NCBI RefSeq assembly: GCF_054482525.1
Contig: NZ_JBTHVG010000003.1
Direction: 5' to 3' (one strand)
Origin: a plasmid
DNA length: 64,000 nt
Shown: positions 34,656 to 51,823 of the stretch, piece by piece
Numbering within the stretch: the first letter of the stretch is position 1
How the letters are laid out: the number at the start of each line of letters is the position of its first letter
The notes under the pieces: generated by a model
Seen by the model: only the letters and a program-made list of their open reading frames with translations
Told to the model about the DNA's origin: nothing
The model's database searches: none
Position numbers and translations under genes: made by a program

Positions 34656-35475
34656 GGCACTGTTGCAAATAGTCGGTGGTGATAAACTTATCATCCCCTT
34701 TTGCTGATGGAGCTGCACATGAACCCATTCAAAGGCCGGCATTTTCAGCGTGACATCATTCTGTGGGCCGTACGCTGGTACTGCAAATACGGCATCAGTT
34801 ACCGTGAGCTGCAGGAGATGCTGGCTGAACGCGGAGTGAATGTCGATCACTCCACGATTTACCGCTGGGTTCAGCGTTATGCGCCTGAAATGGAAAAACG
34901 GCTGCGCTGGTACTGGCGTAACCCTTCCGATCTTTGCCCGTGGCACATGGATGAAACCTACGTGAAGGTCAATGGCCGCTGGGCGTATCTGTACCGGGCC
35001 GTCGACAGCCGGGGCCGCACTGTCGATTTTTATCTCTCCTCCCGTCGTAACAGCAAAGCTGCATACCGGTTTCTGGGTAAAATCCTCAACAACGTGAAGA
35101 AGTGGCAGATCCCACGATTCATCAACACGGATAAAGCGCCCGCCTATGGTCGCGCGCTTGCTCTGCTCAAACGCGAAGGCCGGTGCCCGTCTGACGTTGA
35201 ACACCGACAGATTAAGTACCGGAACAACGTGATTGAATGCGATCATGGCAAACTGAAACGGATAATCAACGCCACGCTGGGATTTAAATCCATGAAGACG
35301 GCTTACGCCACCATCAAAGGTATTGAGGTGATGCGTGCACTACGCAAAGGCCAGGCCTCAGCATTTTATTATGGTGATCCCCTGGGCGAAATGCGCCTGG
35401 TAAGCAGAGTTTTTGAAATGTAAGGCCTTTGAATAAGACAAAAGGCTGCCTCATCGCTAACTTTGCAACAGTGCC
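34656..35475 (+). mobile_element. tnp26: IS26 copy 5 (Tnp26 G184N variant)
   Basis: 820 bp; Tnp26 coding 34719-35423; RIINATLGF instead of RIIGATLGF, plus one silent change. Confidence 0.95.
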
Positions 35476-35625
35476 GCCCCAGCAGCATCTCCAGCTGTGA
35501 ACGCTGTTCGGCTGACGGTATCAGTGCCAGTTTGTTCCACAGGCGCAACGTCGCCTTTTCCCTTACCTCTGAAATCAACCGGGTCAGCGTAGTGGCTCCG
35601 GGGAGAATAATAGTCTATCCCGGCA

Positions 35626-36003
35626 TTGCCAGTCGGGGATATTAAAAAGAGTATAGGTTTTTATTGCGATAAACTAGGTTTCACTTTGGTTCACCATGAA
35701 GATGGATTCGCAGTTCTAATGTGTAATGAGGTTCGGATTCATCTATGGGAGGCAAGTGATGAAGGCTGGCGCTCTCGTAGTAATGATTCACCGGTTTGTA
35801 CAGGTGCGGAGTCGTTTATTGCTGGTACTGCTAGTTGCCGCATTGAAGTAGAGGGAATTGATGAATTATATCAACATATTAAGCCTTTGGGCATTTTGCA
35901 CCCCAATACATCATTAAAAGATCAGTGGTGGGATGAACGAGACTTTGCAGTAATTGATCCCGACAACAATTTGATTAGCTTTTTTCAACAAATAAAAAGC
36001 TAA
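35626..36003 (+). CDS. bleO: bleomycin-binding protein, BleO-like
   Basis: Low-GC ORF matching the pUB110-type BleO sequence as recalled (PVGDIKKSIGFYCDKLGFTLVHHEDGFAVLMCNEVRIHLWEA...); the track starts it at a TTG, so the true N-terminus is uncertain. Confidence 0.75.
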   Translation: MPVGDIKKSIGFYCDKLGFTLVHHEDGFAVLMCNEVRIHLWEASDEGWRSRSNDSPVCTGAESFIAGTASCRIEVEGIDELYQHIKPLGILHPNTSLKDQWWDERDFAVIDPDNNLISFFQQIKS

Positions 36004-36020
36004 AATCTATTATTAATCTG

Positions 36021-36085
36021 TTCAGCAATCGGGCGCGATTGCTGAATAAAAGATACGAGAGACCTCTCTTGTATCTTTTTTATTT
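36021..36085 (+). terminator. tandem hairpins with T-run downstream of bleO
   Basis: TTCAGCAATC-GGGCGC-GATTGCTGAA then AGATACGAGAGA-CC-TCTCTTGTATCT followed by TTTTTTATTTT. Confidence 0.55.
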
Positions 36086-36090
36086 TGAGT

Positions 36091-36185
36091 GGTTTTGTCC
36101 GTTACACTAGAAAACCGAAAGACAATAAAAATTTTATTCTTGCTGAGTCTGGCTTTCGGTAAGCTAGACAAAACGGACAAAATAA
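36091..36185. repeat. long imperfect palindrome in the bleO module
   Basis: TTTTGTCCGTT...CCGAAAGAC...GTCTGGCTTTCGG...AACGGACAAAA, nested inverted repeats over ~95 bp. Confidence 0.4.
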
Positions 36186-36322
36186 AAATCTAAATATGCT
36201 TGAACAACTTGTAACTTAAATTCATAACTGTATTTTGCCATAAAAAATGACCTCCCATAAGTTAGATTTTTGGTCTAACTTATGGGGGTCAGTTCATTCT
36301 ACACTTGGGCTGCATGTTTTGA

Positions 36323-36715
36323 TTAATTATCTAATATCTCCGGATCTCCTGTAAAGGAATATAAAACTGCCTGCATGTTTTTCAAATAAAATACGGTGAA
36401 TTTCCCATCATCAGCGCTATACCAATCTCTCAAAAACGGATTTGCTTCAAGCATTGCTTCCCTTGCTTCCACGGTATCATCAATTACGGCTTCGCCGGTG
36501 AGCCGAATCCATTTTCCTTTTGCCATACCTGAGACTTCCACCTTTGAATTTGCCAATAACTGCTGATAAACTTTTTTCTGATTGGTTGTACCAAGATAGA
36601 CCTTGCCATTCCTCTCCATGGCTGCATTAAACGGTCTGACCCTTGGCTGGTCTCCTTCAACGGTTGCAAAATAAAAAGTTTTTGCTTCATTTAAAAAATC
36701 AACAACTTGACTCAT
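36323..36715 (-). CDS. pyridoxamine 5'-phosphate oxidase-like (split-barrel flavin-binding) protein
   Basis: 130-aa low-GC ORF; family assignment from general resemblance, unverified. Confidence 0.5.
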   Translation of the reverse strand: MSQVVDFLNEAKTFYFATVEGDQPRVRPFNAAMERNGKVYLGTTNQKKVYQQLLANSKVEVSGMAKGKWIRLTGEAVIDDTVEAREAMLEANPFLRDWYSADDGKFTVFYLKNMQAVLYSFTGDPEILDN

Positions 36716-36759
36716 CCTTTTTTACCTCCATAAATAAATTTTTCTTTACTTTTCTTTGA

Positions 36760-36997
36760 CCTAAATTCCACGTGCATTTTTTATTAGCTTAAAAGAACAC
36801 TATTTCACGAAGAATTTAAACTGATACTCCCACATTGTAACATTATTTACCACCACCTTTCAATCTTTTTCAATAAATTATTGATTGCAACTTTTGAGTA
36901 AAGATACTTATTAAACCCTGCAAGTTATCCACAGAGCAACACTCGATTTTCAAGATGATATCTTTATTATACCAGACATTTTTCATACACTTCCTTG
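36760..36997 (-). mobile_element. divergent ISEcp1-like (IS1380 family) 3'-end remnant, truncated by IS26
   Basis: Reverse complement aligns at roughly 85% identity with the ISEcp1 remnant at 27456-27664 and ends in ACGTGGAATTTAGG about 45 bp upstream of the 36715 start codon. Confidence 0.6.
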
Positions 36998-37817
36998 GGC
37001 ACTGTTGCAAAGTTAGCGATGAGGCAGCCTTTTGTCTTATTCAAAGGCCTTACATTTCAAAAACTCTGCTTACCAGGCGCATTTCGCCCAGGGGATCACC
37101 ATAATAAAATGCTGAGGCCTGGCCTTTGCGTAGTGCACGCATCACCTCAATACCTTTGATGGTGGCGTAAGCCGTCTTCATGGATTTAAATCCCAGCGTG
37201 GCGTTGATTATCCGTTTCAGTTTGCCATGATCGCATTCAATCACGTTGTTCCGGTACTTAATCTGTCGGTGTTCAACGTCAGACGGGCACCGGCCTTCGC
37301 GTTTGAGCAGAGCAAGCGCGCGACCATAGGCGGGCGCTTTATCCGTGTTGATGAATCGTGGGATCTGCCACTTCTTCACGTTGTTGAGGATTTTACCCAG
37401 AAACCGGTATGCAGCTTTGCTGTTACGACGGGAGGAGAGATAAAAATCGACAGTGCGGCCCCGGCTGTCGACGGCCCGGTACAGATACGCCCAGCGGCCA
37501 TTGACCTTCACGTAGGTTTCATCCATGTGCCACGGGCAAAGATCGGAAGGGTTACGCCAGTACCAGCGCAGCCGTTTTTCCATTTCAGGCGCATAACGCT
37601 GAACCCAGCGGTAAATCGTGGAGTGATCGACATTCACTCCGCGTTCAGCCAGCATCTCCTGCAGCTCACGGTAACTGATGCCGTATTTGCAGTACCAGCG
37701 TACGGCCCACAGAATGATGTCACGCTGAAAATGCCGGCCTTTGAATGGGTTCATGTGCAGCTCCATCAGCAAAAGGGGATGATAAGTTTATCACCACCGA
37801 CTATTTGCAACAGTGCC
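36998..37817 (-). mobile_element. tnp26: IS26 copy 6 (Tnp26 G184N variant)
   Basis: 820 bp; Tnp26 coding 37050-37754 on minus strand; Asn184. Confidence 0.95.
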
Positions 37818-38073
37818 AGTTTTATTGTTACATTTAAATCCACGCCGGGATCGCGGTTTTTTATCCCCCCCCTGGACCGCACATAAAGTGCAACAATTAT
37901 TCTTGCACTTAGTTAAGCGCCTTCCTACAATCGCCGCGATAGTGTATTCGAAATTGTTACAGTTTTGTGGCGATGATCGACACAAATGGCCTTAAGCCAG
38001 CCCGGACAAAGGAAGTGGCGCGGCTTCTCACGCTGCGTCTTGCCCGGCGGCTACATTTACCGGAATAAAAATA

Positions 38074-39249
38074 ATGAGCCTGCAAAAAACCTGGGGAAAC
38101 ATTCACCTGACCGCGCTCGGCGCGATGATGCTCTCCTTTCTGCTCGTCGGCTGCGACGACAGCGTCGCACAGAATGCTGCGCCTCCCGCCCCGACGGTCA
38201 GCGCCGCTAAGGTGCTGGTGAAGTCGATCAGTCAGTGGGATAGTTTTAACGGTCGCATTGAAGCGGTGGAGAGCGTTCAGCTTCGCCCTCGCGTCTCGGG
38301 ATACATTGATAAAGTGAATTACACTGACGGCCAGGAGGTGAAAAAGGGCCAGGTGCTGTTCACGATAGATGACAGAACCTATCGCGCCGCGCTGGAGCAG
38401 GCGCAGGCGGCGTTGGCAAGAGCCAAAACGCAGGCCAGCCTCGCGCAAAGCGAGGCGAACCGCACCGATAAATTAGTCCATACCAACCTCGTCTCCCGTG
38501 AAGAGTGGGAGCAGCGCCGGTCAGCCGCGGTTCAGGCGCAGGCCGACGTTCGCGCCGCGCAGGCGGCGGTGGATGCCGCGCAGCTTAACCTCGACTTCAC
38601 CAAAGTGACCGCCCCTATTGACGGCCGCGCCAGCCGGGCGCTGATCACCAGCGGTAACCTGGTCACCGCGGGCGACACCGCCAGCGTGCTCACCACCCTG
38701 GTCTCGCAAAAGACGGTGTACGTCTACTTTGACGTCGACGAGTCAACCTACCTCCACTATCAAAACCTCGCCCGCCGCGGGCAAGGCGCGTCCAGCGATA
38801 ATCAGGCGCTCCCGGTGGAGATTGGCCTGGTGGGCGAGGAGGGTTACCCCCACCAGGGCAAAGTGGATTTTCTCGATAATCAGTTAACGCCGAGTACCGG
38901 CACCATCCGCATGCGTGCGCTGCTGGATAACTCGCAGCGTCTGTTCACGCCGGGGCTGTTTGCCCGCGTGCGTCTGCCGGGCAGCGCAGAGTTCAAAGCC
39001 ACGCTGATCGACGACAAAGCGGTACTGACCGATCAGGATCGTAAATACGTCTATATCGTTGATAAAGATGGTAAAGCACAGCGCCGCGACATTACCCCAG
39101 GGCGGCTGGCAGACGGTTTACGCATCGTTCAGAAGGGGTTGAATCCTGGGGATAGCGTCATCGTCGACGGCTTACAAAAAGTGTTTATGCCGGGTATGCC
39201 GGTTAACGCCAAAACCGTTGCCATGACCTCCAGCGCCACCCTTAACTGA
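38074..39249 (+). CDS. oqxA: RND efflux periplasmic adaptor OqxA
   Basis: 391-aa ORF with lipoprotein signal (LLVGC) and membrane-fusion-protein sequence matching OqxA as recalled. Confidence 0.95.
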   Translation: MSLQKTWGNIHLTALGAMMLSFLLVGCDDSVAQNAAPPAPTVSAAKVLVKSISQWDSFNGRIEAVESVQLRPRVSGYIDKVNYTDGQEVKKGQVLFTIDDRTYRAALEQAQAALARAKTQASLAQSEANRTDKLVHTNLVSREEWEQRRSAAVQAQADVRAAQAAVDAAQLNLDFTKVTAPIDGRASRALITSGNLVTAGDTASVLTTLVSQKTVYVYFDVDESTYLHYQNLARRGQGASSDNQALPVEIGLVGEEGYPHQGKVDFLDNQLTPSTGTIRMRALLDNSQRLFTPGLFARVRLPGSAEFKATLIDDKAVLTDQDRKYVYIVDKDGKAQRRDITPGRLADGLRIVQKGLNPGDSVIVDGLQKVFMPGMPVNAKTVAMTSSATLN

Positions 39250-39272
39250 TCCCTAATCAGAGAATCCAAGAC

Positions 39273-42200
39273 ATGGACTTTTCCCGCTTTTTTATCGACA
39301 GGCCGATTTTCGCCGCGGTGCTGTCGATTTTAATTTTTATCACCGGGTTAATCGCTATCCCACTGCTGCCGGTGAGCGAATATCCGGATGTCGTCCCGCC
39401 GAGCGTCCAGGTGCGCGCGGAGTATCCCGGCGCCAACCCGAAAGTGATTGCCGAGACCGTGGCGACGCCGCTGGAGGAAGCGATCAACGGCGTTGAAAAC
39501 ATGATGTACATGAAATCGGTCGCCGGCTCCGACGGCGTGCTGGTCACCACCGTCACCTTCCGCCCGGGTACCGACCCGGATCAGGCGCAGGTTCAGGTGC
39601 AGAACCGCGTCGCGCAGGCCGAAGCGCGTCTGCCGGAGGATGTACGCCGTCTGGGGATCACCACCCAGAAGCAGTCTCCGACGCTGACCCTGGTGGTGCA
39701 TCTGTTCTCCCCCGGCGGGAAGTACGACTCGCTGTATATGCGCAACTACGCCACGCTGAAAGTGAAGGATGAGCTGGCGCGCCTGCCCGGCGTCGGCCAG
39801 ATCCAGATTTTTGGCTCCGGTGAATATGCGATGCGCGTCTGGCTGGATCCCAATAAGGTCGCTGCCCGCGGTCTGACGGCCTCGGATGTGGTGACGGCGA
39901 TGCAGGAGCAAAACGTCCAGGTGTCTGCCGGACAGCTTGGCGCCGAGCCGCTGCCGCAGGAGAGCGATTTCCTGATCTCCATTAACGCCCAGGGCCGTCT
40001 GCATACCGAAGAAGAGTTTGGCAATATCATTCTGAAAACGGCGCAGGATGGCTCGCTGGTCCGCCTGCGCGACGTGGCGCGCATCGAGATGGGTTCCGGT
40101 AGCTATGCGCTGCGCTCCCAGCTCAACAATAAGGATGCGGTCGGGATCGGTATCTTCCAGTCACCCGGCGCTAACGCCATCGATCTGTCGAACGCGGTAC
40201 GCGCCAAAATGGCCGAGCTGGCCACCCGCTTCCCGGAAGATATGCAATGGGCGGCGCCGTACGACCCGACGGTTTTCGTCCGCGACTCCATCCGCGCGGT
40301 GGTGCAGACGCTGCTGGAGGCGGTAGTGCTGGTGGTGCTGGTAGTGATCCTGTTCCTGCAGACCTGGCGCGCGTCGATTATCCCGTTGATCGCTGTGCCG
40401 GTATCGGTGGTGGGTACCTTCAGCATTCTCTATCTGCTGGGCTTCTCGCTGAATACCCTGAGCCTGTTCGGGCTGGTACTGGCTATCGGTATCGTGGTGG
40501 ACGACGCCATCGTGGTGGTGGAGAACGTCGAGCGTAATATCGAAGAGGGGCTTGCGCCGCTTGCCGCGGCGTATCAGGCGATGCGTGAGGTCTCCGGGCC
40601 GATTATCGCCATTGCGCTGGTGCTGTGTGCGGTGTTCGTGCCGATGGCGTTTCTCTCCGGGGTCACCGGCCAGTTCTACAAACAGTTCGCGGTGACCATC
40701 GCCATCTCGACGGTGATCTCGGCCATCAACTCGCTGACGCTCTCCCCGGCGCTGGCGGCCCTGCTGTTAAAGCCGCACGGCGCGAAGAAAGACCTCCCTA
40801 CCCGGCTGATCGATCGCCTGTTTGGCTGGATTTTCCGTCCGTTTAACCGCTTTTTCCTGCGCAGCTCGAACGGCTATCAGGGACTGGTAGGCAAAACGCT
40901 TGGACGCCGTGGCGCAGTGTTTGCGGTGTACCTGCTGCTGCTCTGCGCCGCTGGGGTGATGTTTAAAGTCGTCCCCGGCGGGTTTATTCCCACCCAGGAT
41001 AAGCTGTATCTCATTGGCGGCGTGAAGATGCCGGAAGGGTCGTCGCTGGCGCGCACCGACGCGGTGATCCGCAAAATGAGCGAGATCGGGATGAATACCG
41101 AAGGGGTCGACTATGCGGTCGCTTTCCCGGGGCTTAACGCGCTGCAGTTCACCAACACGCCGAATACCGGGACGATCTTTTTTGGCCTGAAACCGTTCGA
41201 CCAGCGCAAACACACGGCGGCGGAAATTAACGCGGAGATCAACGCCAAAATCGCGCAAATCCAGCAGGGCTTTGGCTTTTCCATCCTGCCGCCGCCGATT
41301 TTAGGTCTGGGTCAGGGTTCCGGCTACTCCCTGTACATCCAGGATCGCGGAGGGCTGGGCTATGGCGCGCTGCAAAGCGCGGTGAATGCGATGTCCGGGG
41401 CGATTATGCAGACGCCGGGGATGCACTTCCCGATCTCGACTTACCAGGCTAACGTGCCGCAGCTGGACGTGCAGGTCGATCGCGATAAGGCGAAAGCGCA
41501 GGGGGTATCGCTAACCGATCTGTTCGGTACGCTGCAGACCTATCTCGGCTCGTCTTATGTCAATGACTTTAACCAGTTCGGGCGTACCTGGCGCGTGATG
41601 GCCCAGGCTGACGGACCATACCGCGAGAGCGTGGAAGATATCGCCAATCTGCGCACCCGCAATAATCAGGGCGAAATGGTACCGATCGGCAGTATGGTGA
41701 ATATCAGTACCACCTACGGGCCGGATCCGGTGATCCGCTACAACGGTTATCCGGCGGCGGACCTGATTGGCGATGCCGATCCGCGGGTCCTCTCTTCTTC
41801 GCAGGCGATGACGCATCTGGAAGAGCTGTCGAAGCAGATCCTGCCGAATGGGATGAATATTGAGTGGACGGATCTCAGCTTCCAGCAGGCCACCCAGGGC
41901 AACACGGCGCTGATCGTCTTCCCGGTGGCGGTGCTGCTGGCATTCCTCGTACTGGCCGCGCTGTATGAAAGCTGGACCCTGCCGCTGGCGGTGATCCTTA
42001 TCGTACCGATGACGATGCTCTCCGCGCTGTTTGGCGTCTGGCTGACCGGGGGCGATAACAACGTCTTCGTGCAGGTGGGTCTGGTGGTCCTGATGGGCCT
42101 GGCCTGTAAAAACGCCATTCTGATCGTCGAGTTTGCCCGCGAGCTGGAGATCCAGGGGAAAGGCATCATGGAAGCGGCGCTGGAGGCATGCCGCCTGCGT

Positions 42201-42425
42201 CTGCGCCCGATCGTGATGACCTCCATCGCCTTTATCGCCGGGACCATTCCGCTGATCCTCGGCCACGGCGCGGGGGCGGAAGTCCGCGGCGTCACCGGGA
42301 TCACGGTGTTCTCCGGGATGCTGGGCGTGACGCTCTTCGGTCTGTTCCTGACGCCGGTGTTTTACGTGACGCTACGGAAACTGGTGACCCGCAGGAAGCC
42401 GGTCCAGGAGGATCTGCCCGCCTAG
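39273..42425 (+). CDS. oqxB: RND efflux transporter OqxB
   Basis: 1050-aa ORF, 12-TM RND permease, 23 bp downstream of oqxA. Confidence 0.95.
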   Translation: MDFSRFFIDRPIFAAVLSILIFITGLIAIPLLPVSEYPDVVPPSVQVRAEYPGANPKVIAETVATPLEEAINGVENMMYMKSVAGSDGVLVTTVTFRPGTDPDQAQVQVQNRVAQAEARLPEDVRRLGITTQKQSPTLTLVVHLFSPGGKYDSLYMRNYATLKVKDELARLPGVGQIQIFGSGEYAMRVWLDPNKVAARGLTASDVVTAMQEQNVQVSAGQLGAEPLPQESDFLISINAQGRLHTEEEFGNIILKTAQDGSLVRLRDVARIEMGSGSYALRSQLNNKDAVGIGIFQSPGANAIDLSNAVRAKMAELATRFPEDMQWAAPYDPTVFVRDSIRAVVQTLLEAVVLVVLVVILFLQTWRASIIPLIAVPVSVVGTFSILYLLGFSLNTLSLFGLVLAIGIVVDDAIVVVENVERNIEEGLAPLAAAYQAMREVSGPIIAIALVLCAVFVPMAFLSGVTGQFYKQFAVTIAISTVISAINSLTLSPALAALLLKPHGAKKDLPTRLIDRLFGWIFRPFNRFFLRSSNGYQGLVGKTLGRRGAVFAVYLLLLCAAGVMFKVVPGGFIPTQDKLYLIGGVKMPEGSSLARTDAVIRKMSEIGMNTEGVDYAVAFPGLNALQFTNTPNTGTIFFGLKPFDQRKHTAAEINAEINAKIAQIQQGFGFSILPPPILGLGQGSGYSLYIQDRGGLGYGALQSAVNAMSGAIMQTPGMHFPISTYQANVPQLDVQVDRDKAKAQGVSLTDLFGTLQTYLGSSYVNDFNQFGRTWRVMAQADGPYRESVEDIANLRTRNNQGEMVPIGSMVNISTTYGPDPVIRYNGYPAADLIGDADPRVLSSSQAMTHLEELSKQILPNGMNIEWTDLSFQQATQGNTALIVFPVAVLLAFLVLAALYESWTLPLAVILIVPMTMLSALFGVWLTGGDNNVFVQVGLVVLMGLACKNAILIVEFARELEIQGKGIMEAALEACRLRLRPIVMTSIAFIAGTIPLILGHGAGAEVRGVTGITVFSGMLGVTLFGLFLTPVFYVTLRKLVTRRKPVQEDLPA

Positions 42426-42440
42426 CCTGCAGCAGATAAC

Positions 42441-42478
42441 AAAAAAACCGCCTTCACAATTTGAAGGCGGTTTTTTTT
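42441..42478. terminator. bidirectional rho-independent terminator
   Basis: A-run, AACCGCCTTCA-CAATT-TGAAGGCGGTT hairpin, T-run; lies between convergent oqxB and oqxR. Confidence 0.7.
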
Positions 42479-42494
42479 CGTCACCAGAAAATGA

Positions 42495-43023
42495 TTAATG
42501 CGCTTTTTTAAAGCGGGCGATCATTTCCGGCACCGGGTCGCAGCCGCTGGTATCGGCGTTTTTGACCGCCTCCAGCGCGCTGGCCACGGTATGGCGAGCG
42601 AGGACGTTTAACGAAGCCTGCTCTGCTTCATCGGCAACCGATTTGAAGTACCAGCAGGCGTTGGCGCTGACCACGCAGCGGGCCGGGACGTCAGGACGCG
42701 ACGCCCACAGTTTTTTATCTTCGATAACCGAAAGATAGATATCACGCAGGGTGATCTTGTCCGCCGGACGGCCAAGATGAATTGAGCCGTTGCGACCAAG
42801 CGTGGAGACGATAATGCCGTCACGAGTTAGCGGAACCATTAGTTTACGGATAAAGCTCGGGTTCGCTTCCAGGCCGTAGGCCAGAATCGCACTCGTCGAA
42901 CGTTCACCCATCTGCTCCGCCATTGCTACGCTGAGAACCATCTGCAAAGCTGTCGGGAAGCGGTAATCTAACATGGCAGTGTCCTGGGTTGCGGTGAATC
43001 TTGTTCTTTTTAGCACCGCAGAG
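42495..43023 (-). CDS. oqxR: Rrf2-family repressor OqxR, N-terminus replaced at the IS26 junction
   Basis: Rrf2-like sequence from LDYRFPTALQMVLSVA onward; the in-frame N-terminus MNKTKGCLIANFATVP is encoded inside IS26 copy 7. Confidence 0.65.
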
Positions 43024-43843
43024 GGCACTGTTGCAAAGTTAGCGATGAGGCAGCCTTTTGTCTTATTCAAAGGCCTTACATTTCAAAAACTCTGCTTACC
43101 AGGCGCATTTCGCCCAGGGGATCACCATAATAAAATGCTGAGGCCTGGCCTTTGCGTAGTGCACGCATCACCTCAATACCTTTGATGGTGGCGTAAGCCG
43201 TCTTCATGGATTTAAATCCCAGCGTGGCGTTGATTATCCGTTTCAGTTTGCCATGATCGCATTCAATCACGTTGTTCCGGTACTTAATCTGTCGGTGTTC
43301 AACGTCAGACGGGCACCGGCCTTCGCGTTTGAGCAGAGCAAGCGCGCGACCATAGGCGGGCGCTTTATCCGTGTTGATGAATCGTGGGATCTGCCACTTC
43401 TTCACGTTGTTGAGGATTTTACCCAGAAACCGGTATGCAGCTTTGCTGTTACGACGGGAGGAGAGATAAAAATCGACAGTGCGGCCCCGGCTGTCGACGG
43501 CCCGGTACAGATACGCCCAGCGGCCATTGACCTTCACGTAGGTTTCATCCATGTGCCACGGGCAAAGATCGGAAGGGTTACGCCAGTACCAGCGCAGCCG
43601 TTTTTCCATTTCAGGCGCATAACGCTGAACCCAGCGGTAAATCGTGGAGTGATCGACATTCACTCCGCGTTCAGCCAGCATCTCCTGCAGCTCACGGTAA
43701 CTGATGCCGTATTTGCAGTACCAGCGTACGGCCCACAGAATGATGTCACGCTGAAAATGCCGGCCTTTGAATGGGTTCATGTGCAGCTCCATCAGCAAAA
43801 GGGGATGATAAGTTTATCACCACCGACTATTTGCAACAGTGCC
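43024..43843 (-). mobile_element. tnp26: IS26 copy 7 (Tnp26 G184N variant)
   Basis: 820 bp; Tnp26 coding 43076-43780 on minus strand; Asn184; direct orientation with copy 6 around oqxAB. Confidence 0.95.
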
Positions 43844-43990
43844 ACGCAAAGACGTAATGAGCAGTGTATCCCCTGCCACAATACCCTCTTCAGGGATGCT
43901 GTCAGTGGACGTCCAGTACTGACCCGCCAGCAAAGAATGAAATCGCTCTAAACGGTCAATGCTATTTTTGCTGACCAGGTCACCCATATA
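43844..43990 (-). pseudogene. backbone gene 5' fragment truncated by IS26
   Basis: Hand translation from ATG near 43990: MGDLVSKNSIDRLERFHSLLAGQYWTSTDSIPEEGIVAGDTLLITSLR, running into IS26 copy 7. Confidence 0.3.
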
Positions 43991-44237
43991 CTTTTCCTTC
44001 CAGATTCGTGTGTTAGGTGAATCATACCAGATTGCCCTTGCCGTCTAATAACGCAGAAAACTGTGAATCCAAAATTCCTTAAATTCAAACCTGTCCAATA
44101 TAAAAGATGGCTCTTTTTCTTATCCAGTGTTAAGCGATAATGCTCAATTTTATTTCATTATTGTCAGAATCAAAATAATCTGAAAATAAAAAAGGCTTCA
44201 GAATTGAAGCCTCTATATTATACAACGTGAATGTATT

Positions 44238-44594
44238 TTATTTATCTTTCACCGGGTTCATTTCCCAGTATCTTTCACGTACGTTTTCTTGGCAATGGTC
44301 CGCTCGCTCCGGCGTGTCCCTTTTACGAGTAGCAAATGCTTCAATTACGGCATTCAAGTCTTTTTCTTTGATTTTAGATCCAACAGGCAAGTTTTCTTCA
44401 AACTCAGTCCTTACCAGTTCTTTCGTTTTTTTATAATCGGTTTCACTTTGGATTTCAGGTTTTAAACAAATATCGGCAACCATCACATCTGATTTGCCCG
44501 GGATCGGTTTTTTCCCGTTTTCAGATGCAAGGACCGCAGAGGAGGTAAAGGCGACAGACAGAGTTGCACATAACAGAAGGTATTTTAATTTCAT
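44238..44594 (-). CDS. secreted hypothetical protein
   Basis: 118-aa ORF with signal peptide (MKLKYLLLCATLSVAFTSSAVLA). Confidence 0.45.
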   Translation of the reverse strand: MKLKYLLLCATLSVAFTSSAVLASENGKKPIPGKSDVMVADICLKPEIQSETDYKKTKELVRTEFEENLPVGSKIKEKDLNAVIEAFATRKRDTPERADHCQENVRERYWEMNPVKDK

Positions 44595-44743
44595 GACTCA
44601 CTCCATGATTATCAATGATGGTTGCTCAGACACATCATTTATACCATGCCTGTCACCGAATACGAGATCCCCATATTTTGGCTTTAAATATTATCCAATA
44701 GGGTTTCATACACCTGGCTTCTGAAAGCAAGGTTCAAGGAGCT

Positions 44744-45361
44744 TCAGGGGGAAATCAGATTGTTGTCGACCCAGTACTTGTGCAAACCTACCACCCAATT
44801 CCTGGAAATGGACGAAAGTTCATGCGCCAGTTCACGACAGCATTCAGGCGTAAAAATACGTATGGGTCCTGAAGTACCGATATCAACAGACATGATAAAC
44901 TCCAGAATGTTGCCATGGCATAGGTTGTTTCTCAGCCTGACAATTTCTGCTTCAGGTGTTCTCCCGGCTGCTACCTTAACCAACATATCCTGCTCGGCTG
45001 GAAATGAAAGTAATTCTACCGGCACCCCTTCCTGCTTGGCCTTTCTCAGTAAGGCATTACTCATTACGGAGATACCCTCCAAGTCCACCAGCTCAGGAGC
45101 TGCATGCTGATCGTTAACTGTTGGTTTCAGCATCAGCGACTTCAACGTAACCATGAGTGATGTTTCAATCCCGTTCAGGAAGCTCGTACAGGCCGGTATC
45201 CATAGTTCGTGATGCAACGCCTCGGTTGCTTGTTTAAAGAACCAGTCAATCACGGGGACAGTGTGATAATCATAATAGTGATTTATCTCGCTGAATCTTG
45301 ACATATAAGCATCGTACTCAGCCTGGTCTTCAGGAGATAAAAAATTTGGTGGGAGGGGCAT
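44744..45361 (-). CDS. hypothetical protein
   Basis: 205-aa ORF; no family recognised. Confidence 0.45.
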   Translation of the reverse strand: MPLPPNFLSPEDQAEYDAYMSRFSEINHYYDYHTVPVIDWFFKQATEALHHELWIPACTSFLNGIETSLMVTLKSLMLKPTVNDQHAAPELVDLEGISVMSNALLRKAKQEGVPVELLSFPAEQDMLVKVAAGRTPEAEIVRLRNNLCHGNILEFIMSVDIGTSGPIRIFTPECCRELAHELSSISRNWVVGLHKYWVDNNLISP

Positions 45362-45515
45362 CAGAATCCTTTCATCCTAGCTTGTATACCTTCTTCGTAG
45401 GCCAGCTCGCCATTATCGGTAAAAGATGGTTTTTGGTGTTTGTGACAAAGCTTAATTTTTCGTCAGGCTCGATAGCGTTACCGGAGAGATTTGATCTTTT
45501 CTCTGTAACTCGCAA

Positions 45516-45535
45516 TACTGTTTATACATACAGTA
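45516..45535. promoter_or_regulatory. LexA (SOS) box
   Basis: TACTGTTTATACATACAGTA, a close match to the TACTG-N10-CAGTA consensus, 20 bp upstream of the umuD-like start. Confidence 0.65.
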
Positions 45536-45554
45536 TGAGAATTCGAGTGTAGCT

Positions 45555-45989
45555 ATGTCTGTTATCCTTGAGCACATTAGCAACAAGCCTTACGAAATGG
45601 CACCTTTTTTCAGTGATTTACTGAGCTGTGGAGTGATGAGTCCGTGCGCCGGGCATGAAGATAATGAATTAAATTTGCATGAATATGTAGTCCGTAACCG
45701 CCCCTCAACCTTCTTTGTCAGGGCGGCGGGCCTCAGTATGATCAATGCCGGTATCAATGATGGCGCTATTCTGGTTGTGGATCGGTCTTTAACGGCACGA
45801 CACGGCTCTATCGTCGTTGCGCTGGTGGATGGAGAGTTCACGGTAAAGATCTTACACACGTATCCTGAGCTGCTTTTGATGCCTTCTAATCCAGCCTATA
45901 AGCCGATACGTGTAAATCCCGAATCCCTTGAGATATGGGGCGTCGTCACCTTTGCACTGAATCAGTTTAGCCATGTACATGCACGTTGA
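45555..45989 (+). CDS. umuD: UmuD/MucA-like self-cleaving accessory subunit of error-prone polymerase
   Basis: 144-aa ORF with LexA-like S24 peptidase features (cleavage-site-like CG, Ser/Lys dyad region). Confidence 0.8.
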   Translation: MSVILEHISNKPYEMAPFFSDLLSCGVMSPCAGHEDNELNLHEYVVRNRPSTFFVRAAGLSMINAGINDGAILVVDRSLTARHGSIVVALVDGEFTVKILHTYPELLLMPSNPAYKPIRVNPESLEIWGVVTFALNQFSHVHAR

Positions 45990-47232
45990 TATTAACGGGG
46001 CCTATGCGGCATTTGAGTGTGCGATGGATCCCAAGCTGGCAAAAAAGCCGCTCATCATAGCCAGCAATAACGATTCGTCCGTCATTGCAATGAATAAACT
46101 GGCTAAAAGCGTTGGTATTAAGCGTGGGACCCCAATTTTTAAGTGCAGGGATTTGATTCAGCAACACCAGATCGAAGTCCGGAGCTCTAACTTTACTTTG
46201 TATGAAGACTACTCAAATCGCTTCCATGAAACGCTGGAAAGCTTCGCGCCTCAATCGAGTCGATATAGCATAGATGAAAATTTCATGTTATTGAAAAACA
46301 TGAACAAGATAATAGATTATGAAGATTACGGCCGGTTGATCAGAAGTACACTTCTTCATAATCTGTCCCTTACCTGTGGTGTGGGGTGTTCAAGCACCAA
46401 AACCCTGGCTAAATTATGCACCTATGCGAGCAAACGATGGGCAGCTACAGGCGGGGTTGTAGTTTTGACTGATCAGGCCAGGATCAGGAAGCTCCTGGGC
46501 CTTATCAGTACCAGAGAAATATGGGGTATTGGTCAAAAGATCAGTGAACGCCTGTCGGCTTTCGGGATCATCACTGCCGGTGATTTTTATAATAGCGACG
46601 TTCGCTTTTTACGTAAAAGCTTTGGCGTTGAAATCGAGCGTACCTGGCGGGAACTGCATGGCGAACCATGTTTCCGGCTGCATGAATCCCCTCCTGTCCG
46701 GCAACAGATTATCGTTTCCAGAAGTTTTGGTCAGCGCCTTAATGAGATAGGCAAGCTACATGAGGCAGTTTCATTTTTTACCGCCCGGGCGGCAGAGCAG
46801 CTGCGCAAGGATGGCTCGTGGACCCGTCAAATCACAGTCTTCATTCAGAGCAGCAATTATGCGCAAGGTGAAAACCGCTACAGCAATTGTGGTATCGAGC
46901 CGCTTACCGCTACACAGGACACCCGCGATCTGGTTGATGCAGCCATGACCATCCTGAACCGCATTTACAAACCCGGGATAGCGTATGCGAAAGCTGGGGT
47001 AATGCTCTCCGCTATGACTGACGGCACAGAGCAACTCAGCCTGTTTGATGAGCGCCCGGCCAGGCCTGGCAGTCAGGCACTGATGAAAGTTATGGACCGG
47101 TTCAATAAAGAAAAGCGCGGAGCTCTGTTTTTGCTGGGGGAAGGCATTCAACAGGATTTTCGTATGAAACAGGCCATGCTATCACCGAGATATACGACCC
47201 GCTGGGATGAATTACTCGTTGTAAAAGCGTAG
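45973..47232 (+). CDS. umuC: UmuC/MucB-like Y-family DNA polymerase
   Basis: 419-aa ORF overlapping the umuD stop; N-terminus VDINGAYAAFE resembles the UmuC palm start; true start may be ATG at 45979. Confidence 0.85.
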   Translation: MYMHVDINGAYAAFECAMDPKLAKKPLIIASNNDSSVIAMNKLAKSVGIKRGTPIFKCRDLIQQHQIEVRSSNFTLYEDYSNRFHETLESFAPQSSRYSIDENFMLLKNMNKIIDYEDYGRLIRSTLLHNLSLTCGVGCSSTKTLAKLCTYASKRWAATGGVVVLTDQARIRKLLGLISTREIWGIGQKISERLSAFGIITAGDFYNSDVRFLRKSFGVEIERTWRELHGEPCFRLHESPPVRQQIIVSRSFGQRLNEIGKLHEAVSFFTARAAEQLRKDGSWTRQITVFIQSSNYAQGENRYSNCGIEPLTATQDTRDLVDAAMTILNRIYKPGIAYAKAGVMLSAMTDGTEQLSLFDERPARPGSQALMKVMDRFNKEKRGALFLLGEGIQQDFRMKQAMLSPRYTTRWDELLVVKA

Positions 47233-47277
47233 CGGCCATGACCGGCATGGCCGTACTCATCAAAAGTGAAAGTAACT

Positions 47278-48087
47278 TTAGGCCCCGCGAGCTTTTTCGA
47301 TTGCGCCCTGCAAAGTTGCTGCGTCCATAGCCCCGGGGATAAATGTGGTAGTCGCCGCATTCGGCTTTTTCATATTCATAATGATGAAGCCGGGTGTGCC
47401 GGTGATCCCAAGCGCTTCGCCCAGCTGCATGTTGCCGGAGATCACGTTTTCATATCGGTTTTTTTCCCTGTCAGAAAACGTGCTGTTAAACCCTGACTTA
47501 TCCACCACAGTATTAAAGTCGCTGAGTTCGAATTTGCGTTGAGAGGTCATGAAGGTATGAGCCACAGCCATCAGGTTGTTGTGGTATTTACGATAGGCTT
47601 CAGCACCGAAATTCTGATAGACGTGCAGACCCGTAGCGGCCCCCATGGCAGATACAGGTTTTGAACCGGCAAAAATCGGGAATTCTTTAAAGAAGAATTT
47701 TACATCTTTGCTCTGATTCATTACCGATTCAACAACAGGTGTAACCCGCATGCAGTAAATACACTGATAGTCGAAGAACTCGATTACCGCGACGTCGGCG
47801 TCATCCGGGCCGATGTTTGGCGTCTCCTTGGTATCCAGCAGAGCTGGCGCATATGGAATTATTCGTTCCACTGAGGCACTTACGTTCTGATTTTCCAGCG
47901 CCTTACCTGCTTCCACTAAATAATGGGGATTTTTTACCAGGTAAGTAGCGGCAATTTTGCCAATTTCTTCCTCACTGAGCACCTTCGGTTTAAAATAAGT
48001 TGCCGCGATTAACGCCGAGGCAGCGGTAGCAATTACCGCAGAAATTAAAATCGTGGCCATCGGTTTTAAATAAAATTCTTTAGACAT
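47278..48087 (-). CDS. DsbA-like thiol:disulfide oxidoreductase
   Basis: 269-aa ORF with N-terminal membrane anchor and thioredoxin-fold CIYC active site. Confidence 0.7.
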   Translation of the reverse strand: MSKEFYLKPMATILISAVIATAASALIAATYFKPKVLSEEEIGKIAATYLVKNPHYLVEAGKALENQNVSASVERIIPYAPALLDTKETPNIGPDDADVAVIEFFDYQCIYCMRVTPVVESVMNQSKDVKFFFKEFPIFAGSKPVSAMGAATGLHVYQNFGAEAYRKYHNNLMAVAHTFMTSQRKFELSDFNTVVDKSGFNSTFSDREKNRYENVISGNMQLGEALGITGTPGFIIMNMKKPNAATTTFIPGAMDAATLQGAIEKARGA

Positions 48088-48193
48088 AGCTACCTTTATG
48101 CTTTTCAGCCTGTTAGTTATTAACCTGCGATGGATTATACTGGCCCGGTAAATCGGAATTATTCGTGAAACAATGCTTTTTGGAGATTAAAGG

Positions 48194-48805
48194 ATGATTA
48201 GGCAGGGCTTTATACTCACAACCGCAATGCTTTTGAGTGGTTGTGGATATCATTTCGCAAACCAGGTAGATGCGTACGATCTAATGCCTCGTCCTGTTAC
48301 AAATAAAAGGTTTCAGATAGTCCCTCCGGACGAAAGTATTCAGTCCAGAATGTTTTCAGGCCGTTTTGCTGATGGATTAGCAAAAAAAGGAGTCATTATT
48401 TCCACTCACCAGCCAGATTATGTGCTCAGGTTCCGAATGAGCAGCTCACAGGAGAACATGCAGTATAGCGAGCAGCTTCTTACTGGGGTGACAGGCTACG
48501 TTGTAGATAAAAAGACAACGAGAACTGACAAGCATGGCGAATCGCATACTGACTATGACTACAGGCCGGTCGATGGGGTAATAGGCACTGAGACGATGTC
48601 GCAGATGCACTATATGCGACAGCTGGATGTCGAGGTATACCCGTCAGCGAAAGGAGCAAAGCAGGTTCTGAAAGTGAGTATGCAAAGCAATGCACCTGTG
48701 CCGTCAGACAGCATTGCTTATTCAGCAATGATCGACGCCTTTACTGATAAATTTGATGCGCCGCTGCGTTCCGGAAATTATGTTGCAGTGATCCCCTGGA
48801 ACTGA
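48194..48805 (+). CDS. putative lipoprotein
   Basis: 203-aa ORF with lipobox LLSGC. Confidence 0.45.
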   Translation: MIRQGFILTTAMLLSGCGYHFANQVDAYDLMPRPVTNKRFQIVPPDESIQSRMFSGRFADGLAKKGVIISTHQPDYVLRFRMSSSQENMQYSEQLLTGVTGYVVDKKTTRTDKHGESHTDYDYRPVDGVIGTETMSQMHYMRQLDVEVYPSAKGAKQVLKVSMQSNAPVPSDSIAYSAMIDAFTDKFDAPLRSGNYVAVIPWN

Positions 48806-48864
48806 AAGCAGACGGCGGGAAGAGAATGTTCAAAAGTGACTTTTGGACACGCACATAAACGTGG

Positions 48865-49287
48865 CTATCGCCCTCCCCCATTAAAATCATAAAGTCGGTA
48901 AAGATCGCCCATCGTGATGGAATTGGGCTTATTAATGATTAGATACTGTAACTGTTCTTTATGTTGAGTACTGGCGGCTGCATTCATAAGCACTTCCAGG
49001 TAGAACTTGTAGCCTATGCTTCGCTCTGAATACATATACTGGAACTGCATCAGTAAAATGCCTGACATAACATACAACAGCAGCAGACTGAGTAACACAG
49101 TGCTATCAGGCTGTTCCAGTGCCATACTGACATACCCTGAACCCAGAATGCACAGAAGCCAACCCGTCATTAGAGCAGGCACCCTACGACTCAGACGTTC
49201 ATAACAACGTTTTATTACGGGATCCCGGAGATACTTTTTGTCAGGTATCCCCGTTGCCCTGATGACGAAGTTACTGAGTATCGACAT
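48865..49287 (-). CDS. hypothetical membrane protein
   Basis: 140-aa ORF with two central hydrophobic helices. Confidence 0.4.
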   Translation of the reverse strand: MSILSNFVIRATGIPDKKYLRDPVIKRCYERLSRRVPALMTGWLLCILGSGYVSMALEQPDSTVLLSLLLLYVMSGILLMQFQYMYSERSIGYKFYLEVLMNAAASTQHKEQLQYLIINKPNSITMGDLYRLYDFNGGGR

Positions 49288-49320
49288 CTTTTTTCCTTCT
49301 GGACGCTCTCAGTCAATAAA

Positions 49321-49719
49321 TCAGGCCAGGCGCTCATTGAAAGCTACCACGAGCTGCGAATCGGGATTTTTTACCAGTTCGGGCCGGATAACTTTTAGTT
49401 GCCTCGTTGGGGCGAGCTCATCTGTAGGCCTGATGGTGGTATTACCCGGCCCCTTGCGGGTACTGTCGGTGTTTACCTTGAGCTTTTTATTTCCCAGGTA
49501 GCTTTCCATCTTTTTAGAGATGGTGTCACCTGTGGTCGCAACACCAGAGAGTTCCTTTAGTTGTTCACCTTGATCCATTTGTACCGATGACATCAGAAAT
49601 ACGATTCCTGGATCGTTTTCCGTTCCACAGGCTCCGTACTGACATTGTGCAGCGAAAACGGGCTGTACACCTACAGCAACCAGCATTAACGTACTCAGTA
49701 AAGTAGATTTCATACACAC
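49321..49719 (-). CDS. secreted hypothetical protein
   Basis: 132-aa ORF with signal peptide; start may be the internal Met at 49713. Confidence 0.4.
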   Translation of the reverse strand: MCMKSTLLSTLMLVAVGVQPVFAAQCQYGACGTENDPGIVFLMSSVQMDQGEQLKELSGVATTGDTISKKMESYLGNKKLKVNTDSTRKGPGNTTIRPTDELAPTRQLKVIRPELVKNPDSQLVVAFNERLA

Positions 49720-49737
49720 CTCTTACAGTCGGAAAAG

Positions 49738-50487
49738 TTACTTTTGCGCAGCGCCCATTTGGGTCACCAGGTTTTCCGGGCTCAGCCACCCCGTAAATAA
49801 CTGCGGTTTGCCGCTTAGTGTCACCATGGTAGGAGTACCTTGCAGCGGGATTGTTGAGGCCACCTGGAAATGCGATTTGATAATGTTTAAGCAAGCCTCA
49901 TCAGGACGTCCTTCCGGGATAGTTGAAACCGGATTCATCGCTGCATCCAGAGCTTCGTTTGGCTTTGCTGAACACCAGATTTTGGCCATGTTCCCGGCTA
50001 CTACCGAGTTCAGTCCTGCACGTGGGAATGCAAGAAACTTAATCGAAATACCGGCATCAAGATAAGACTTCAGATCATGATGCAGTTTTTGGCAGTATCC
50101 ACAGGTTATATCGGTAAAGATAGCAAGCCGGTATTTTTCGTTTGGTGATTTGTAGTCGATGGATTTTGTTTTGGATGCGAATTCCCGGACGCCCATTAAA
50201 ATGGCCTGCTCAGTGGTGTTTACCACATCTTTACCTTTCACGTGGAATAAGCTTCCGGTAAAAATGTAATCTCCGTCTTTGCTCACGTAACTTACCCCCT
50301 CCCTGGAAATCACCGTAAAAATATCTTTTACTGGCGAGGGTTCGACGTGCTCGATTGAAAGCCCAATGGCTTTGAGCTTATCCCGGGCTGCATCTGGCAG
50401 TACCATTGTATTAACCGGCTCGGCATTCATCGTGAAGGCGGTACTTAATGAAAGAAGTAATACCGATGCCTTAATAATTTTTTTCAT
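49738..50487 (-). CDS. DsbC-like periplasmic disulfide isomerase
   Basis: 249-aa ORF with signal peptide and CGYC active site in a thioredoxin-like C-terminal domain. Confidence 0.75.
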   Translation of the reverse strand: MKKIIKASVLLLSLSTAFTMNAEPVNTMVLPDAARDKLKAIGLSIEHVEPSPVKDIFTVISREGVSYVSKDGDYIFTGSLFHVKGKDVVNTTEQAILMGVREFASKTKSIDYKSPNEKYRLAIFTDITCGYCQKLHHDLKSYLDAGISIKFLAFPRAGLNSVVAGNMAKIWCSAKPNEALDAAMNPVSTIPEGRPDEACLNIIKSHFQVASTIPLQGTPTMVTLSGKPQLFTGWLSPENLVTQMGAAQK

Positions 50488-50634
50488 TTATGCTCCTTGA
50501 ATCGAGCACTAATATTATCACGCCCAAAAATTCCAGAATTTTGCTTAAACGCTTAAATCAACGGGTAAAGCCGAAAGAAAGTCGATAGATATATGGGAGA
50601 ATAGATAAAACGTAGATTCAGTGGAGAAATCGTT

Positions 50635-51174
50635 GTGTTTACACCACCAGCAGATGATGTGAAACCTATTCCCGTTCCTGATGAGATTTACACTCAGTGC
50701 ATTACGGATGCCGCCCGCTTCTTCGGAATTGATGCCGAACTGGTTTTTACGTTGTTTGACAATGAAGGCGGTAAGGTTGGTACTTTCAGCAGGAATACTA
50801 ACGGCACTTATGATATTGGCCCGATGCAGATCAACTCATCCAATCTGCCTGAAATAAAAAAGCATTTCCCGACTGTAACGTGGCGGGTTCTGGCTTACGA
50901 TGCTTGCGCTAGTTTCTGGGTTGGAACATGGTGGCTCTACAGAAAAATTGTTGATCGCAAGGGCAATGTGTTTGAAGGGATTGCAGATTACAACAGCAAA
51001 ACCCCAAAGGTACGTGCAAAGTACATATTTAACTTCATGGTAAAGTACAATCGCCGGATCCAGCAGCGTAACGGGATGGGTGAGCTTTATCAATGGACCC
51101 AACAACCTCCTCGATACAATGGCCATATAGCTAAAAATGTCCCGGAGCAAAACCCGACTCCTGTTGTTAAATAA
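50635..51174 (+). CDS. lytic transglycosylase (conjugation-associated)
   Basis: 179-aa ORF with SLT-domain-like sequence; assignment from general resemblance. Confidence 0.6.
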   Translation: MFTPPADDVKPIPVPDEIYTQCITDAARFFGIDAELVFTLFDNEGGKVGTFSRNTNGTYDIGPMQINSSNLPEIKKHFPTVTWRVLAYDACASFWVGTWWLYRKIVDRKGNVFEGIADYNSKTPKVRAKYIFNFMVKYNRRIQQRNGMGELYQWTQQPPRYNGHIAKNVPEQNPTPVVK

Positions 51175-51256
51175 ATTCAACCTGATATTACAGAAGATCA
51201 TCGAGTAGCTTGGGTACCCCCCCGCAAAAAATTCGCATAGACTCAGGGGTAATAAA

Positions 51257-51823
51257 TTGTCTTTTTCTGCAAGAAATATATTTAAGATTCTCTCTTCTTT
51301 CTTGATGCAGAAAAGCCCTCTTCATGAAGAAGTATGTGTTCCTGAAGAAACAACAGCTGGTTTATGGGGCCCTCTCCCTGATTCGCATGTCGTGCTTTTC
51401 TTAGATTTCGATGGGGTTTGTCACAGGTGCAAAAATGAAACCTTTGAGCGAATGCCATTGGTGGAAAAATTACTGGATAAATGCCCTTCCATGGTGATTG
51501 TCATCTCCAGTTCGTGGCGTGAATGTGCCAGTATAACTTACCTGAAATCTCTTTTCCGGCTACCTTATAGAGACAAAGTCATAGGTGCTACCGATTCGGT
51601 ATATTTAAAACCTAATCAGTCAGGTGTGCGGGCTGCTGAGTGTGAGGACTTTGTATTTTCACATCGAGTTAAAGCATTTATCTGCCTTGATGACGACGAA
51701 TCATTATTCCCGGTCGGTTATCCACATTTGCAAAAAACCAATTATTACACCGGCCTCACCGAATCTGATCTTGCAGCTCTTAACACCAGGTATCATCTGC
51801 TTATGAAACGTTGGGCTTCCTGA
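51257..51823 (+). CDS. hypothetical protein, possibly HAD-like hydrolase
   Basis: 188-aa ORF with FLDFDGV motif resembling HAD motif I (DxDG[TV]); weak. Confidence 0.4.
   Translation: MSFSARNIFKILSSFLMQKSPLHEEVCVPEETTAGLWGPLPDSHVVLFLDFDGVCHRCKNETFERMPLVEKLLDKCPSMVIVISSSWRECASITYLKSLFRLPYRDKVIGATDSVYLKPNQSGVRAAECEDFVFSHRVKAFICLDDDESLFPVGYPHLQKTNYYTGLTESDLAALNTRYHLLMKRWAS

Follow-up and report, generated by a model that had tools for sequence, protein, structure and literature searches.

An IS26-bounded oqxA-oqxB-oqxR unit matching Tn6010 in the resistance region of an IncHI2-type plasmid

Identity of the Unit

We analysed a 64,000-nucleotide stretch of plasmid DNA (contig NZ_JBTHVG010000003.1 of assembly GCF_054482525.1; the window hereafter). 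Its positions 36998-43843 almost certainly correspond to Tn6010, i.e., a pseudo-compound transposon bounded by two IS26-v1 copies, whose oqxA, oqxB, and oqxR genes were taken by IS26 from the Klebsiella pneumoniae chromosome. The unit is ordered IS26, oqxA, oqxB, a hairpin, oqxR, and IS26; its outer IS26 ends lie 6,846 bp apart and enclose a centre of 5,206 bp (37818-43023). In the literature, Tn6010 is defined by exactly the succession IS26, oqxA, oqxB, oqxR, IS26 (PMC9045139; PMC6387526). One review gives it a length of 6,731 bp, with which neither the window copy nor the equally long copy of plasmid pOLA52 agrees. Nothing in the sequence contradicts the Tn6010 reading. The features described here have all been published before and, since every element of the picture is in the literature, nothing in it is scientifically new; the value of this copy is that of a correctly annotated example. 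The clinical and veterinary relevance of the unit lies in a transferable efflux determinant for quinolones, olaquindox, and phenicols that is linked to other resistance genes.

An earlier, sequence-only reading had placed at this position two G184N-class IS26 copies in the same orientation, around oqxA, oqxB, a bidirectional terminator, and the regulator gene, and had recognized in them a composite-transposon arrangement. The limits that it gave are the exact outer ends of both IS26 copies, and these copies are indeed 820 bp each and 100% identical, with AAC at codon 184. The scores against family models and RNA folding agree with the content that it listed. It had also called for an alignment with Tn6010. 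Run against pOLA52, this alignment shows the two units to agree in the type and orientation of their IS, in the order of their genes, and in the bases at the junctions. The arrangement thus holds as that of Tn6010 in pOLA52; as a classical composite transposon it does not, the 8-bp target duplication being absent.

Chromosomal Origin and Expression of the oqxAB Genes

The centre aligns over all its 5,206 nt with the chromosome of K. pneumoniae ATCC 13883 (NZ_KN046818), with 98.9% identity, while the best other species among 20+ other Enterobacterales reaches 88% at most. As in the rarA-oqxAB-oqxR locus of K. pneumoniae, the window carries an identical OqxR, the same terminator, and the oqxA promoter region; unlike in this locus, the genes lie on a plasmid, between two IS26 copies, and are accompanied neither by rarA nor by the native oqxR promoter.

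On the left side, sequence inspection and alignment with ATCC 13883 show that 256 bp of the native oqxA upstream region are kept (37818-38073, plus strand). In this alignment, the IS26 breakpoint falls 75 bp short of the start codon of the divergent rarA gene, which is absent. The published oqxA transcription start is located 135 bp 5' of the ATG, at a promoter bound by OqxR (PMC9045139), and maps here to about 37939. The motif TTGCAC-N17-TACAAT, at 37903-37931, is correctly spaced for this start and we read it as the probable oqxA promoter; a simple promoter scan called no oqxA promoter.

Downstream, oqxA (38074-39249, plus strand) encodes a 391-aa protein of the OqxA2 allele, and oqxB (39273-42425, plus strand) a 1050-aa protein of the OqxB2 allele. 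Both exceed the cut-offs of the curated models specific to OqxA (NCBIfam NF000272, 873 bits for a cut-off of 835) and OqxB (NF000037, 2490 bits for a cut-off of 2200), and identical plasmids annotate the adaptor gene product as OqxA2. OqxA is the periplasmic adaptor subunit of the pump and OqxB its RND permease subunit. Together with an outer-membrane channel of the host, they would export olaquindox, quinolones, chloramphenicol, and other compounds, a phenotype known from the literature.

Between the convergent oqxB and oqxR genes, positions 42441-42478 contain a predicted two-way intrinsic terminator, made of A7, a 9-bp stem (CCGCCTTCA), a 5-nt loop (CAATT), the return stem (TGAAGGCGG), and T8. 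On the plus strand, its folding energy reaches -24 kcal/mol (z of -5.3), and on the minus strand -27.8 kcal/mol (z of -5.6); all of 200 shuffled sequences are less stable. Among Enterobacterales, 20 chromosomal oqxB/oqxR loci keep the hairpin, and two of them, L049 and L056, show paired changes. It was missed by a simple terminator scan; this structure suggests that it functions as a terminator.

The oqxR coding sequence (42495-42974, minus strand) is intact, and its 159-aa product is 100% identical over its whole length to the K. pneumoniae ATCC 13883 protein and to the OqxR of pOLA52. It matches the Rrf2 family of Pfam (PF02082, 68.2 bits for a cut-off of 30) and scores 46.7 bits against the NCBIfam Rrf2 superfamily model, below the cut-off of 73.3. 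OqxR is the repressor of oqxAB (PMC9045139); the GntR-type label given to it in the same paper is unsupported by our domain search, which returns Rrf2.

Upstream of oqxR, 49 bp of native sequence remain (42975-43023, minus strand), the rest lying beyond the IS26 breakpoint. The chromosomal oqxR promoter region, to which TTATAT and the published start at -62 belong, is located outside the right breakpoint and is lost. This is in line with the published Tn6010 form, in which only about 50 bp adjoining oqxR match the chromosome, the native start at -62 is lost, oqxR expression is lower, and oqxAB is expressed constitutively, versus a tight repression in the chromosome (PMC9045139).

The expression of plasmid-borne oqxAB would thus be set by the two capture breakpoints. 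The left junction spares the native oqxA promoter while excluding the activator gene rarA; the right one removes the native oqxR promoter, so that too little repressor would be made (the under-expression of oqxR being taken from the literature) and oqxAB would become constitutive. We also considered the outward hybrid promoter that the TTGCAA of the IS26 end can form with flanking DNA. Both junctions offer only weak -10 candidates, TACATT on the oqxA side and TAAAAA on the oqxR side, each with a spacing of 18. We rejected this promoter as the main driver because the published starts (-135 for oqxA, +33 for oqxR) do not fit these candidates.

The Flanking IS26 Copies and the G184N Variant

The left IS26-v1 (36998-37817, minus strand, 820 bp) adjoins the oqxA upstream region by its IRL end. 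Its transposase gene, tnp26 (37050-37754, minus strand), encodes a Tnp26 G184N that reaches 278 bits against the NCBIfam IS6 transposase model and is annotated as WP_001067858.1 in matching plasmids. The right IS26-v1 (43024-43843, minus strand, 820 bp; tnp26 at 43076-43780, minus strand, also G184N) meets, by its outer end, the IncHI2 backbone leading to umuDC. The two copies are in direct orientation, and the terminal repeats GGCACTGTTGCAAA are intact in both. Such a pair of identical 820-bp repeats cannot be attributed to chance.

Seven IS26 copies are present in the window. Four are standard and three carry G184N, all of the latter being found within a 10.5-kb block of pOLA52 type. Compared to the four standard copies, the flanking ones differ by a silent G459A and by GG613-614AA, which converts codon 184 from GGC to AAC, so that their 234-aa transposase differs from the standard product only by G184N. 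This substitution raises Tnp26 activity, according to Pong et al. 2019 (cited in PMC9019673). Both the IS26-v1 variant and its enhanced activity are thus already in print.

The restriction of G184N to the oqxAB block, the other four copies being standard, raises the possibility of a causal link between IS26-v1 and the spread of oqxAB. IS26-v1 might have accompanied oqxAB since its first capture, and its hyperactivity might have driven the wide spread of the module, a scenario that we consider rather doubtful. If true, typing the variant of the flanking IS26 copies could serve to track the spread of the module; this would be a modest epidemiological hypothesis and would define no new kind of element.

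Comparison with pOLA52

The reference Tn6010 is carried by pOLA52 (NC_010378 / EU370913), an IncX1 plasmid of E. coli from swine manure. The window unit shares with it the direct IS26-v1 ends, the junction bases, the gene order, terminator included, and the length of 6,846 bp. The two copies differ by three substitutions and no gap: these lead to I159V in OqxA and to H434Y and V635I in OqxB, and give the OqxA2 and OqxB2 alleles.

The similarity extends beyond the unit. Positions 33319-43843 of the window align without gaps to pOLA52 (41897..51602..819), with five mismatches over 10,525 nt. Three of them are those found inside the unit and the two others are adjacent substitutions in a PNPOx-family gene. 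The upstream part of this block (33320-36997), delimited by the ungapped alignment and described by NCBIfam and Pfam matches and by annotation, starts with the 38-bp inverted repeat of Tn2 (33320-33357) and a truncated tnpA. It continues with an inverted IS26-v1 (34656-35475), bleO (35617-36003, plus strand), and the PNPOx-family gene (36323-36715, minus strand). All these 3.7 kb are the same in pOLA52, and the left junction of the unit was therefore not made in the plasmid studied here. On the right side, the two plasmids diverge: pOLA52 runs on into what remains of Tn2, blaTEM-1 included, and the window into the IncHI2 backbone. Of the interrupted Tn2, pOLA52 has both inverted repeats as well as a TTATA duplication, whereas the window has one inverted repeat only. 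Tn6010 thus did not enter this plasmid by an insertion of its own, but makes up the right-hand portion of a pOLA52-type block of 10,525 bp. This block (Tn2 end, IS26-v1, bleO, PNPOx gene, IS26-v1, oqxABR, IS26-v1) would have been inherited within an IncHI2 plasmid lineage. The 10-kb fragment of pOLA52 had already been noted in IncHI2 plasmids of Salmonella (PMC6387526).

Plasmid Setting and Distribution

A large plasmid of IncHI2 type carries the unit in its resistance region, and the window also contains blaCTX-M, fosA3, sul1, dfrA12, and aph(3')-Ia. In 320 plasmid records, 80% or more of the unit is present, and the centre occurs in 142 of the 5,426 complete genomes of E. coli, nearly always on plasmids. 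Among the IncHI2 oqxAB plasmids compared (pEC6563-MCR, NZ_CP095857; pHS13-1-IncHI2, NZ_CP026492; pHK0653, KT334335), pEC6563-MCR is collinear with the window from 30832 to 56575, with a single mismatch over 25.7 kb that span the whole unit and both flanks. Window positions 22121-27455 are inverted relative to it, and the blaCTX-M / fosA3 module at 27456-30831 is lacking there at that position. In the plasmid and E. coli collections, the resistance region is covered to 75-84% at best, and in full by no single record.

Mobility of the Unit and Alternative Explanations

Structures bounded by IS26 are now seen as pseudo-compound transposons, and the term "composite transposon" is a historical label. 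The 8-bp sequences flanking the unit do not form a target duplication, either in the window (CTTCCTTG on the left, ACGCAAAG on the right) or in pOLA52 (CTTCCTTG on the left, CTTCATCA on the right), and no matching 8-bp flanks, direct or reverse-complement, were found among all seven IS26 copies of the window. Hence, Tn6010 fits the description of an IS26 pseudo-compound transposon better than that of a classical composite one. Indeed, its segment lies between direct IS26 copies with intact ends and transposase genes. Its movement would proceed through IS26 reactions rather than through classical two-ended transposition, i.e., by copy-in or targeted conservative cointegrate formation. One IS26 and the 5.2-kb centre could be excised or re-inserted together, or the two IS26 copies could undergo homologous recombination.

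Two intact and direct IS26 copies do resemble a composite transposon, as the original name Tn6010 implies (PMC6387526), and the unit could have moved whole to this exact site through the outer ends of both copies. The unequal 8-bp flanks and the further 3.7 kb shared with pOLA52 on the left make this very improbable, as does the absence of a related plasmid that has an empty site here paired with 8-bp duplications around the 6,846-bp unit; moreover, cointegrates and units with one IS, and not two-ended transposition, are the reported modes of action of IS26 (e.g., PMC10433875 and PMC7885326). That the window could instead carry the native chromosomal locus of Klebsiella or a relative, with IS26 inserted by chance on both sides, is suggested by the identity of the centre to the K. 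pneumoniae chromosome, yet this has next to no chance of being correct. The similarity ends exactly at both IS26 copies, the unit lacks rarA and the region upstream of oqxR, the flanks consist of other resistance modules and of IncHI2 backbone (umuDC, tra genes), and identical junctions occur in the 320 plasmids, which come from E. coli, Salmonella, and other genera. This flank comparison already refutes it.

The unit could also be a mere passenger, vertically inherited with the IncHI2 resistance region, that neither moves nor adds resistance. Of the 142 complete E. coli genomes bearing the centre, 58 share with the window a 12.7-kb stretch that takes in the junction to the backbone on the right, and oqxABR alone raises the ciprofloxacin MIC only 4-fold, aac(6')-Ib-cr being needed to reach intermediate resistance (PMC9045139). 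On the other hand, neither flanking IS26-v1 copy is damaged in its transposase gene or its ends, more than half of the 142 genomes carry the centre in other contexts, and it is found on IncX1, IncF, and IncN as well as IncHI2 plasmids. Circular IS26-oqxAB intermediates were, moreover, reported to be common, in 93.4% of positive strains (PMC6387526). We therefore consider the passenger explanation unlikely and favor that of a mobile pseudo-compound transposon.

The window contains another pseudo-compound unit, IS26-aphA1-IS26 (24776-27455), in which direct IS26 copies also surround a resistance segment and for which target duplications are not needed. In both units, the movement would be expected to involve one IS together with the segment. 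The aphA1 unit differs from the oqxAB unit by its cargo and by its standard IS26 ends, in place of the G184N ends.

Identity of the Unit with Tn6010

The unit at 36998-43843 is Tn6010 by its published definition, IS26-oqxA-oqxB-oqxR-IS26 (PMC9045139; PMC6387526), and it is already known in every testable respect. The sequence-only reading had called it Tn6010-like, and this was borne out by direct alignment with the reference plasmid pOLA52 (NC_010378, IncX1, E. coli), whose sequence we joined across its origin beforehand. Positions 33319-43843 align with pOLA52 41897..51602..819 without gaps and with 5 mismatches over 10,525 nt, and the unit itself carries three substitutions. The two copies of the unit agree in IS type and orientation, in their junction bases, in the order of their genes, and in length (6,846 bp); the sequence-only reading had named another flanking IS or another gene order in the reference as grounds for dropping it, and neither was found in pOLA52. 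We thus regard the observation as confirmed and its interpretation as supported, with the refinements described below. The protein changes relative to pOLA52 are I159V in OqxA and H434Y and V635I in OqxB, alleles annotated in databases as OqxA2 and OqxB2. Outside oqxAB, the aligned sequences differ only at 36435-36436 (AA in the window, GG in pOLA52), two adjacent positions of the PNPOx-family gene that lies between bleO and the left flanking IS. One review gives the length of Tn6010 as 6,731 bp, against 6,846 bp between the outer IS26 ends in both the window and pOLA52.

A search for repeats and a BLAST self-comparison of the window identified seven IS26 copies of 820 bp. The two that flank the unit (36998-37817 and 43024-43843) are 100% identical to each other, retain intact 14-bp terminal repeats, and both encode the transposase on the minus strand, so the same-orientation pair described from sequence was correctly recognized. 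Together with a third, inverted copy (34656-35475), they differ by three bases from the other four, which are standard IS26 (22121-22940, 24776-25595, 26636-27455, and 30832-31651). G459A is silent, and GG613-614AA converts codon 184 of the 234-aa Tnp26 from GGC (Gly) to AAC (Asn), as the label "G184N-class" had implied. In PMC9019673 (citing Pong et al. 2019), this type is designated IS26-v1 and reported to have raised activity in both IS26 reactions. All three G184N copies lie within the block common to pOLA52.

Plasmid Context and Mobility

Tn6010 forms the right-hand part of this larger block of 10,525 bp (33319-43843). The 38-bp inverted repeat of Tn2 (33320-33357) marks its exact start, followed by a truncated tnpA, the inverted IS26-v1, bleO (35617-36003), the PNPOx-family gene (36323-36715), and the left IS26-v1 of Tn6010. 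The interrupted Tn2 of pOLA52 retains the inverted repeats of its two ends together with a TTATA duplication, whereas in the window a single repeat is left, the one at the tnpA end, and the right IS26-v1 adjoins IncHI2 backbone leading to umuDC. This 10-kb fragment has been mentioned in a review and was previously noted in Salmonella IncHI2 plasmids (PMC6387526). At least 80% of the unit is held by 320 plasmid records, and its centre (37818-43023, between the flanking IS copies) occurs in 142 of 5,426 complete E. coli genomes, nearly always on plasmids; 58 of these 142 share the right-hand junction of the window.

Other IS26-bounded modules upstream carry dfrA12, aph(3')-Ia, blaCTX-M with fosA3, and sul1. 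The CTX-M/fosA3 module (27456-30831) contains a CTX-M family beta-lactamase gene (27706-28581), an IS5-family element fragment, and fosA3 (29172-29609); it is annotated blaCTX-M-14 in a related plasmid. The IncHI2 plasmid pEC6563-MCR (NZ_CP095857) is collinear with 30832-56575, with one mismatch. The segment 22121-27455 (IS26, partial dfrA12 cassette array, IS26, aph(3')-Ia, IS26) runs in the opposite direction to its counterpart in this otherwise near-identical plasmid, which is consistent with an inversion mediated by IS26.

No 8-bp target duplication was found at the ends of the unit: its flanks read CTTCCTTG and ACGCAAAG in the window, and CTTCCTTG and CTTCATCA in pOLA52. Nor were matching flanks found among the seven IS26 copies of the window. 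In the literature, IS26 moves by copy-in and targeted conservative cointegrate formation, and its translocatable unit consists of one IS and an adjacent segment (PMC10433875, PMC7885326, PMC7986276, PMC8722046). Because of the missing duplication and this published behaviour, we assign the unit to the IS26 pseudo-compound transposons: the composite-transposon arrangement proposed from sequence holds for the layout, which is that of Tn6010, and not for the classical composite label. By analogy with other copies in the literature, the unit would move through IS26 reactions; among E. coli positive for oqxAB, 93.4% were reported to have circular IS26-oqxAB forms (PMC6387526).

Cargo, Chromosomal Origin, and Expression

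The cargo comprises oqxA (38074-39249, plus strand, 391 aa; 873 bits with the OqxA-specific NCBIfam model, cut-off 835), oqxB (39273-42425, plus strand, 1050 aa; 2490 bits, cut-off 2200), and oqxR (42495-42974, minus strand, 159 aa; full-length Pfam Rrf2 domain, 68 bits, cut-off 30). This domain search places OqxR in the Rrf2 class, versus GntR-type in PMC9045139. Between the convergent oqxB and oqxR stop codons lies a hairpin (42441-42478; A7, CCGCCTTCA, CAATT, TGAAGGCGG, T8) with folding energies of -24 and -27.8 kcal/mol, one per strand, and z-scores near -5.5. It is a genuine native feature, because 20 chromosomal Enterobacterales oqxB/oqxR loci conserve it in this position, and two of these show paired changes in the stem. 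The "strong bidirectional terminator" of the sequence-only reading therefore stands as a conserved structure folding on both strands; its terminator function we infer.

One DNA-pattern scan of representative genomes yielded 54 chromosomal oqxA-like loci (L005-L058). Many Enterobacterales chromosomes among them, including Enterobacter, Kosakonia, Raoultella, Rahnella, Phytobacter, and Trabulsiella, carry oqxA/oqxB/oqxR-like loci in which this convergent terminator recurs, at 75-88% DNA identity to the window. The 5,206-bp centre matches K. pneumoniae ATCC 13883 over its full length at 98.9% identity (next-best species, 88%), the OqxR proteins of the two are 100% identical, and chromosomal similarity stops exactly at the IS26 ends on both sides. 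Beyond the left breakpoint, the K. pneumoniae chromosome leads to rarA, a divergent gene for an activator, with its ATG 75 bp outside; rarA is therefore absent from the unit. The 256 bp of native sequence kept upstream of oqxA include TTGCAC-N17-TACAAT (37903-37931), at a position fitting the transcription start published for oqxA, 135 bp ahead of its ATG (PMC9045139). A consensus promoter/terminator scan called neither this promoter nor the oqxB/oqxR hairpin, and such misses, of a very stable hairpin and of a promoter fitting a published start, caution against leaning on these scans.

At the right breakpoint, 49 bp are left upstream of the oqxR ATG, and IS26 stands in place of the chromosomal stretch that holds the oqxR promoter and its published start site (-62). 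Binding of OqxR to the oqxA promoter has been shown, and upstream truncation of oqxR was demonstrated experimentally to lower oqxR expression and to render oqxAB constitutive (PMC9045139). Truncation of the oqxR promoter is thus the best-supported account of plasmid-borne pump expression. For oqxR on plasmids, the start published in PMC9045139 lies 33 bp inside the ORF, directly ahead of an in-frame Met codon, Met12 (nt 34-36); from this position, the transcript would be leaderless and the repressor would lack its 11 N-terminal residues.
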